Counted from the stretch's first letter, positions 3,398-4,183 are shown. The stretch is DNA of 4,893 nucleotides from a virus (IMGVR_UViG_2548876958_000007); one strand, 5' to 3'. Numbers and translations: made by a program. Notes: generated by a model from the sequence alone, not told the origin.

Positions 3398-4105
3398 TCA
3401 CGAACTTTTCAGCCACTCCCTTGCCTCGATGTCATCCAGATGGCGAGATTGCTTCAGAATACCAGCTACATACTCCACCTTTGCTACTTGATGATAAGGC
3501 AACGTTATAGGCCTGTGATCCTGGTTAATGCTTGTAAATTGGTATTCTCCATCTCTGTCATAGCCAAGAACCTTAATCATGTTGTGTCCTTCAACGGTTC
3601 TGACAAACACCTCATCACCCGGGAATACTTTGGTGTTAGGCTCAATGAGTACATATTCTCCTGATTTTATTCTGGGCCACATGCTGTCTCCTTTCACACG
3701 AAGACCAAAGGCATCTGGATCATCGCTATAAATTTTGAGCCACCCATCGCGCTCTTCGGTCATCTCGATGGCACCATCAACACCAAGAATTGCCTCACCA
3801 ACCACGCGCACTAACCCTTTTTTTAATTTGCCAACAAATGAAAGAGTATCTTCATCATTCGCTCCATTTAACGAAGTGCCGTGCTGAAGCCAAACAACAT
3901 CAACGTTTAGAAATTTCGCAAGCGCATTCATTTTTTCCTGACGCGGTAAAGACTCAGCATTAAACCATTTGCTAACGCCTTTGGACGAAAGAGAAAGGGC
4001 ACGGGCTATAGCCATTCCCCTACCATGTTCATCAAGACCAGCTTCTTTACAGGCTTGCGCTAGCCGCTGGGCGAATTCTTTGCGCACTTTTTCATTCTGA
4101 ACCAT
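3398..4105 (-). CDS. cI: CI-type phage repressor (235 aa): N-terminal HTH DNA-binding domain plus C-terminal S24 (LexA-like) autopeptidase domain
   Basis: HTH-like segment GRGMAIARALSLSSKGVSKW; catalytic Ser in GDSM (Ser141) and Lys178 (MIKVLGY) at LexA/lambda-CI spacing; divergently transcribed from cro across an operator-rich 78-bp intergenic region; no SD before the ATG (leaderless, as for lambda pRM transcripts). Confidence 0.9.
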   Translation of the reverse strand: MVQNEKVRKEFAQRLAQACKEAGLDEHGRGMAIARALSLSSKGVSKWFNAESLPRQEKMNALAKFLNVDVVWLQHGTSLNGANDEDTLSFVGKLKKGLVRVVGEAILGVDGAIEMTEERDGWLKIYSDDPDAFGLRVKGDSMWPRIKSGEYVLIEPNTKVFPGDEVFVRTVEGHNMIKVLGYDRDGEYQFTSINQDHRPITLPYHQVAKVEYVAGILKQSRHLDDIEAREWLKSS

Positions 4106-4183
4106 GAGTACGATACTAAAGCACTTGCAAAAACTTTCAGTTCAACCATAATACGTACTGAAAGTACGAAAAAGGATATTCCT
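4106..4183. promoter_or_regulatory. oR-type divergent control region: candidate pRM (leftward, leaderless cI) and pR (rightward, cro) with operator-like palindromes
   Basis: Minus-strand -10 TAGTAT (plus 4113..4118) ends 7 nt before the cI ATG. Plus-strand TTGCAA (4126..4131) and CATAAT (4147..4152) with a short 15-nt spacer are a possible pR. Palindrome CGTACTGAAAGTACG at 4154..4168, inverted repeat ACTTTCAGT/ACTGAAAGT (4133..4141 / 4157..4165), quasi-palindrome AGTACGATACT at 4107..4117. Exact operator boundaries unresolved. Confidence 0.6.

Follow-up and report, generated by a model that had tools for sequence, protein, structure and literature searches.

What kind of genetic switch lies in the palindrome-rich spacer between the divergently transcribed cI and cro genes of the viral sequence IMGVR_UViG_2548876958_000007? 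The stretch of DNA analyzed here, referred to below as the window, is 4,893 nucleotides long, and all positions are counted from its first letter. An earlier note on this DNA had proposed that the cI mRNA is leaderless, that the spacer is a control region rich in operator-like inverted repeats, and that the specificity of the repressor may be new. We find that the OR operator/promoter complex is almost certainly the right operator region of the phage 933W immunity module. The genetic switch of this Shiga toxin phage is already well studied, because its repressor governs induction of the Stx2 prophage and, with it, Shiga toxin release. The features in question are real, and none of them is new: a known system had been read correctly, published start sites bear out the leaderless inference, and the idea of a new specificity is dropped.

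Identity and gene content of the immunity region

Judged by its open reading frames (ORFs) and Pfam domains, the window is a lambdoid immunity region (Table 1). Positions 3366 to 4422, which span cI, the spacer, and cro, match base for base the 933W prophage in the chromosome of E. coli O157:H7 EDL933, and positions 4060 to 4230 are 100% identical to both 933W (GenBank AF125520) and Stx2 phage I. A megablast search matched 287 phage records, almost all of them 933W-type Stx-converting phages, and the interval from 3950 to 4330 is at least 99% identical in more than 90 phage records. The AF125520 record annotates oR3, pM, pR, oR2, and oR1 at exactly the window positions given here, whereas the phi24B immunity record EF517298 annotates OR1 to OR3 together with OL1 and OL2. 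Nothing in the window contradicts the assignment to the 933W OR, and the annotation and sequence identity bear out the earlier reading of a divergent cI-cro control region with operators.

The predicted repressor has the LexA/S24 architecture, with an N-terminal HTH_3 domain (Pfam E = 1.2e-05) and a C-terminal Peptidase_S24 domain (E = 4.4e-16), and it is 100% identical to the cI protein of phi24B. Residues S41, K42, and K46 in the published numbering agree with a cI start codon at 4105. The 933W repressor is related to that of HK022 in its N-terminal domain and to those of the H-19B-type Stx1 phages in its C-terminal domain.

Members of the 933W group (phi24B, Stx2 phage I, Min27, P27, and others) have the same five operators, three promoters, and two-site OL as the window. 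Compared with 933W itself, OL differs by one base that lies outside the operators, and the remaining differences are confined to the accessory genes between OL and cI, with a P63C-domain ORF here in the place of stk and its neighbors in 933W. This accessory segment, from approximately 1790 to 2990, is bounded by the PM terminator and the DUF3024 gene, and the P63C-domain ORF within it has an AT-rich upstream region. At 1770 to 1787, the minus strand has a strong hairpin of the terminator type, CCCGGCCTCAGCGCCGGG, with a run of T after it; its counterpart in 933W is tM, the annotated terminator of the PM transcript. The PL operon also includes, downstream of N, a complete Nmad5 gene (nucleotide modification associated domain 5; E = 3e-71) at 230 to 853 on the minus strand. 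When phage records and complete E. coli genomes were searched with the whole window, none covered at least 80% of it; the mosaic arrangement is absent from the records and genomes searched.

Table 1. Window coordinates of genes, promoters, start sites, and operators
Feature	Position	Strand	Sequence	Basis and remarks
N	915-1298	minus		Antitermination protein; ORF and Pfam
PL start	1540	minus		Cappable-seq 1343173, 8/8 conditions; mapped through the 933W alignment
PL promoter	1548..1576	minus	TTGATA-17-CATTAT	Promoter scan
OL1	1552-1566		TGAACCAATAGTTCG	Annotated in phi24B record EF517298; exact core match
OL2	1576-1590		AGAACTATTGGTACG	Annotated in EF517298; exact core match; T at 3′, C at 6′
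P63C-domain ORF	1797-2732	minus		ORF and Pfam
DUF3024 gene	2996-3337	minus		ORF and Pfam
cI	3398-4105	minus		235 aa; HTH_3 and Peptidase_S24; same as 933W cI
OR3	4098-4112		TGAACCATGAGTACG	Centered on the cI start codon and PRM +1; 933W annotation oR3; exact core match
PRM start	4105	minus		A of the cI ATG; Cappable-seq 1346265
PRM -10 (-13..-8)	4113..4118	minus	TAGTAT	Annotated pM of 933W
pM	4113-4140	minus		933W annotation mapped to the window
PR promoter	4125..4152	plus	TTGCAA-16-CATAAT	Promoter scan and 933W pR annotation
OR2	4130-4144		AAAACTTTCAGTTCA	933W annotation oR2; one core mismatch, half-site with A, not G, at position 2
Probable PRM -35	4135..4140	minus	CTGAAA	16-nt spacer; upstream end of annotated pM; center of OR2
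OR1	4154-4168		CGTACTGAAAGTACG	933W annotation oR1; exact core match; highest-affinity natural site (PMC3317979)
PR start	4160	plus		Cappable-seq 1346320, 8/8 conditions; 24-nt cro leader
cro Shine-Dalgarno	4172..4176	plus	AAGGA	Sequence; 7 nt before the cro ATG
cro	4184-4411	plus		75 aa; same as 933W cro; HK022 Cro 46% identical
cII	4550-4849	plus		ORF and Pfam

One operator consensus for OR and OL

A pattern search of the window yielded one core, GWAC-N5-GTWC, with four exact matches (OR1, OR3, OL1, and OL2) and a fifth site, OR2, with one mismatch. All four exact matches in the 4,893 bp fall in the two control regions; 0.11 would be expected by chance, and four were reached in 0 of 200 shuffles. 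When a third OL site was sought between 1299 and 1796, only two core matches were present, and allowing one mismatch added no further site. Extended to 15 bp, all five operators fit nGWACY-N3-RGTWCn, in which the half-site nG(A/T)AC(T/C)n is arranged symmetrically about a central base pair. Position 2 is G in every half-site except one of OR2, positions 4 and 5 are invariably A and C, and position 6 is T in 7/10 half-sites and C in 3/10. The half-sites GTACT, GAACT, GAACC, and AAACT are superficially unlike, and AGTAC and GAACT are nevertheless the same half-site, because position 3 can be A or T.

The consensus is also available in the literature. Bullwinkle et al. (2012; PMC3317979) described the 933W operator as a rotationally symmetric 15-bp sequence with five natural sites, derived its consensus from footprinting, in vitro selection, and mutagenesis, and, together with its predecessors, reported binding constants and a contact model that involves S41, K42, and K46. 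According to the same study, OR2 has one half-site without G-C at position 2, and the natural site of highest affinity departs from the statistical consensus. The five sites in the window agree with every descriptive statement of that paper; OR1 is off consensus at positions 3, 3′, and 7′, and OL2 at 3′ and 6′.

All of the individual sequence elements reported earlier are where they were said to be. The cI-cro spacer is 78 bp long (4106 to 4183), the operator-like repeat CGTACTGAAAGTACG within it is a perfect 6-3-6 inverted repeat at 4154 to 4168, the half-site AGTACG occurs twice (4107 to 4112 and 4163 to 4168), and GTACGAA is present in the candidate oL region at 1585 to 1591. The element AGTTC-N11-GAACT also exists (AGTTC at 1561 to 1565, GAACT at 1577 to 1581), but it is not one element, since it joins the right half of OL1 to the left half of OL2. 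OL1 and OL2 are near-inverted copies of each other, with a perfect 11-nt inverted repeat formed by 1555 to 1565 and 1577 to 1587. The palindromes had therefore been real, but their parsing into operators had been incomplete: OR2 (AAAACTTTCAGTTCA) was missed, as was the reach of OR3 into the cI coding sequence.

Relatives of the region were collected by a scan of one genome per species, which gave 38 loci and, together with HK022 and phages, 39 distinct upstream regions. An operator core lying across the start codon, GWAC-NN-ATG-GTWC, was found in 31/39 of these regions, including that of HK022. The window belongs to an HK022-type operator family, as judged by its GWAC-N5-GTWC sites, by an OR3 that covers the cI initiation codon, and by a recognition helix of the form K(G/A)(V/I)SKWFN.

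These data bear on the proposal that the repressor and operators of this region represent a new DNA-binding specificity, on the grounds that the oR and oL repeats do not fit one consensus. The proposal draws on the dissimilar first appearance of the four half-site sequences and could also appeal to the published deviation of the best-affinity site from the statistical consensus (PMC3317979). Against it, the sequence is that of 933W, the nGWACY half-site with its 15-bp spacing rule covers all five sites, a consensus supported by in vitro selection and mutagenesis has been published, and HK022 uses the same core, as do over 30 diverged prophage repressors with the recognition helix K(G/A)VSKWFN in common. 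Given the identity to 933W and the single consensus for all sites, a new specificity is refuted, and we accord the proposal practically no credence; nor does the claim that no single consensus can be derived hold.

It is equally hard to believe that the palindromes are RNA or DNA hairpins instead of protein-binding sites, for example an intrinsic terminator at 4168..4154. A simple terminator scan does report, on the minus strand, CGTACTTTCAGTACG with TATTATGGTT after it, yet the stem has 6 pairs, just 3 of them G-C, and the tail is weak. Among relatives, position 3 is A or T in one arm of OR1 regardless of the base in the other arm (column 3 is A in 18/30 and column 13 is A in 24/30), and such noncompensatory variation breaks pairing but is in keeping with a protein half-site of the form G-W-A-C. 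Asymmetry at position 3 is also seen in OR3, OL1, and OL2, and transcription from PR starts inside OR1, at 4160. OR1 was rejected as a hairpin or terminator because its arms change without compensation, and the palindromes are treated below as operators.

Start of the cI mRNA at its initiation codon

No start codon precedes the cI ATG (4105..4103, minus strand) in the ORF at 3398 to 4105. A search of the 18 nt upstream of this ATG (4106 to 4123) for AGGA, GGAG, GAGG, and AAGG found none of these tetramers, in agreement with the earlier statement that cI has no Shine-Dalgarno sequence; cro has an AAGGA motif, whereas cI is without any such motif. The TAGTAT at 4118..4113, previously picked out as a -10 element, is the pM -10 of the 933W GenBank annotation, with the 7 nt CGTACTC (4112..4106) between it and the first base of the initiation codon.

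Start sites were taken from genome-wide Cappable-seq of EDL933 under eight growth conditions (Tables S5 and S7 of PMC10469882), and their coordinates were carried to the window by alignment; the cI, OR, and cro sequences are identical over 3366 to 4422. In that data set, gene 6730 ("phage repressor protein C"; CDS 1345558..1346265, minus strand) has a sole gene-specific start, 1346265, which was detected in 8/8 conditions with mean relative read scores of 57 to 252. This coordinate corresponds to window position 4105, so that the PRM start is the first base of the start codon and the last base of the minus-strand CDS. Because the Cappable-seq start falls on the A of the ATG, the inference of a leaderless cI mRNA, as for lambda pRM, is correct and was already shown by public data: the transcript that EDL933 makes from the identical sequence is leaderless and lacks a Shine-Dalgarno sequence. 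The start-site mapping that the earlier note had named as a check thus already existed and gives a leaderless, not a leadered, cI start. In a literature search, we found no paper stating that the cI mRNA is leaderless for 933W specifically. Since 933W lysogens are immune and contain repressor, the 5′-AUG transcript is presumably translated.

The PRM hexamers are weak, with 8/12 matches, and were not reported by a consensus promoter scan. All three start sites, however, lie 7 nt past their respective -10 elements (TAGTAT, CATAAT, and CATTAT), and this common spacing at PRM, PR, and PL supports the -10 assignments. Across the OL/PL region, a single base departs from 933W, a plus-strand T for C at 1540, exactly at the PL start site; the PL transcript begins with A in place of the G of 933W.

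The weakness of the PRM hexamers and their absence from the promoter scan could be taken to mean that TAGTAT is not the working -10 and that most cI expression in lysogens comes from a leadered transcript with its 5′ end at some position upstream of the ATG. TATTAT (4153..4148, minus strand) could act as a -10 for such a transcript, and a PRE-like motif, TTGC-N6-TTGT (4572..4559), would give a long, cII-dependent establishment transcript. Cappable-seq nonetheless gives cI a single gene-specific start, on the first base of its ATG, in 8/8 conditions and with high read scores, and the -10 position and 7-nt distance to the ATG are kept in 27/31 relatives, only 2/31 of which have an upstream Shine-Dalgarno-like tetramer. 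No start site is associated with TATTAT, which was rejected as an alternative -10. The PRE-like motif, on the minus strand, faces cI from the 5′ end of cII, where a cII-dependent PRE is expected, although the match alone is not above chance (11 found versus 8.3 expected with one mismatch allowed). We regard a mainly leadered cI transcript as highly improbable and retain PRM with its start at 4105. A "maintenance promoter" that the Stx2 phage I record places within the cI coding sequence was judged unreliable.

Other start sites map within cI. Toward its 3′ end, EDL933 starts 1345609 (8/8 conditions) and 1345644 (7/8 conditions) correspond to 3449 and 3484 on the minus strand and are assigned to the downstream DUF3024 gene; a promoter-like sequence, ATCACA-17-TATCAT (3519..3491, minus strand), fits the start at 3484. 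The internal starts at 3449 and 3484 may account for the report that, in phi24B lysogens, expression of the genes downstream of cI greatly exceeds that of cI itself (PMC3342100). An antisense start inside cI, 1345809 (+), corresponds to 3649 on the plus strand and was seen in EDL933 in four stationary-phase conditions only.

The arrangement at the cI start is widespread. Among the 31 relatives with the operator core across the start codon, TAnnnT occupies -13..-8, 7 nt upstream of the ATG, in 27/31, and 27/31 of the proteins begin with Met-Val-Gln. This N terminus follows from the operator, since the right half of OR3 makes up codons 2 and 3 (ATG GTW CAN). Salmonella phage MG40, whose cI is 88% identical, keeps the GWAC cores and the 7 nt to the ATG. 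A Providencia phage with a cI that is 35% identical overall, the N-terminal domain being conserved, likewise keeps the cores and the 7-nt distance and has a perfect GAAC-N5-GTTC in the place of OR2. In the Salmonella and Providencia phages, the cores show A/T swaps at position 3, and the -10 element is TACTAT or TATTAT. A different solution is found at seven Pasteurellaceae loci, which have the same order of OR2, 13 nt, -10 hexamer, and OR3, followed by an extra AAGG(T/A/G) and an ATG approximately 11 nt after OR3; their proteins begin with Met-Ile-Thr or Met-Ile-Ser. From this layout, these loci would make a leadered cI mRNA. The general point is that an OR3 placed over the start codon goes with a leaderless cI mRNA and a Met-Val-Gln N terminus, and that in the Pasteurellaceae relatives a Shine-Dalgarno sequence and the ATG come after OR3.

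Operator placement and comparison with other switches

The positions of operators and start sites suggest how the switch would work. A dimer of the HTH-S24 (LexA-type) repressor would bind three 15-bp, twofold symmetric sites at OR and two more at OL. OR1 (-6..+9 of PR) overlies the PR start and OR2 (-30..-16) fills the spacer between the PR -35 and -10 elements, so that repressor on both sites would block PR and keep cro and the lytic genes off. Occupation of OL1 (-26..-12 of PL) and OL2 (-50..-36) would block PL in the same manner. PRM runs leftward from TAGTAT and begins at the A of the cI ATG, yielding a maintenance mRNA without a 5′ leader or Shine-Dalgarno sequence. Because OR3 (-7..+8 of PRM) is centered on the PRM start and the start codon, repressor bound there would turn down its own synthesis.

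Protection of the operators by repressor and regulation of PR, PRM, and PL have been reported in the literature. Later open-access papers from the laboratory of the primary 933W studies report that the 933W repressor binds adjacent sites noncooperatively, with relative affinities of 1 for OR1, 13.6 for OR2, and 26.4 for OR3, and that OR3 is partly occupied in lysogens. The literature ties the noncooperativity, the affinities, and the occupancy of OR3 to low repressor levels and to the ease with which Stx phages are induced. The 933W repressor is also reported to activate PRM (later open-access papers, same laboratory).

How this activation would be achieved is less obvious from the operator layout. 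The center of OR2 (4137) is 32 bp upstream of PRM +1 (4105), at -32 and not at the lambda-type position of approximately -42. CTGAAA (4140..4135), the best PRM -35 hexamer, is the exact center of OR2, with the half-site cores at about -38..-35 and -29..-26 of PRM on either side of it. Among relatives, the center of OR2 is at -32 or -33 in 29/29, and CTGAnA is invariant there in 29/29, whereas the center of OR1 is variable (0.1 to 1.2 bits per column). The invariant OR2 center suggests a second constraint such as a promoter element, and CTGAAA is probably the PRM -35 hexamer. A more lambda-like PRM, with OR2 at -42 (TTGCAA-18-CATGGT, start near 4094), was considered and rejected, as its start would fall inside cI and the measured start is 4105.

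In lambda, OR3 is centered at about -19 and OR2 at about -42 of PRM. With OR2 overlapping the presumed PRM -35 hexamer, the activation step is unexplained by the standard lambda model. It is conceivable, if doubtful, that in all members of the 933W/HK022 family the dimer on OR2 spans the PRM -35 element, so that activation could not follow the contact with sigma region 4 that lambda makes from -42. The same tentative reading would have the building of OR3 into the first three cI codons fix the Met-Val-Gln N terminus in 27/31 lineages. Activation might then depend on a dimer placed on the DNA face opposite sigma region 4, as for lambda CII at PRE, or might be indirect, through clearing of RNA polymerase from the overlapping PR. 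No account of the repressor activating PRM from OR2 was found in the accessible papers; the primary 933W and HK022 papers may cover it.

Among named systems, HK022 (X16093, annotated in 1989) is a close parallel in its operators. Its oR1 and oR3 are both TGAACTTATGGTTCA, with the same GWAC-N5-GTWC core as in 933W, and its oR2, GGAACTGATAGTACA, contains CTGATA. HK022 oR3 is centered on the cI ATG, a -10 element (TATAGT) precedes that ATG by 7 nt, and two adjacent oL sites are annotated, as in 933W. The recognition-helix region is nearly the same in the two repressors and the Cro proteins are 46% identical, but the HK022 cI is just 36% identical overall and its C-terminal domain is unrelated in sequence. 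The passage of PMC8053113 that cites Carlson & Little (1993) describes the HK022 repressor as highly cooperative at adjacent sites and mentions further sites. Cooperativity at adjacent sites is accordingly high for the HK022 repressor and reported to be absent for that of 933W.

A leaderless cI-like mRNA has also been described for PaaR2 of the cryptic prophage CP-933P, where 5′ RACE was applied to a divergent PRM/PR-like promoter pair (PMC8630535). PaaR2 differs from the 933W repressor in being another protein with other operators, and it belongs to a three-component toxin-antitoxin locus, not to a phage immunity switch.

Lambda and 933W share three operators between divergent PR and PRM, a PRM start on the A of the cI AUG without a Shine-Dalgarno sequence, and negative autoregulation through OR3. 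Their operators are unrelated in sequence and measure 15 bp in 933W and 17 bp in lambda. Unlike lambda, 933W has OR3 centered at +1 and OR2 at -32 of PRM, only two sites at OL, and no reported cooperativity between adjacent sites.
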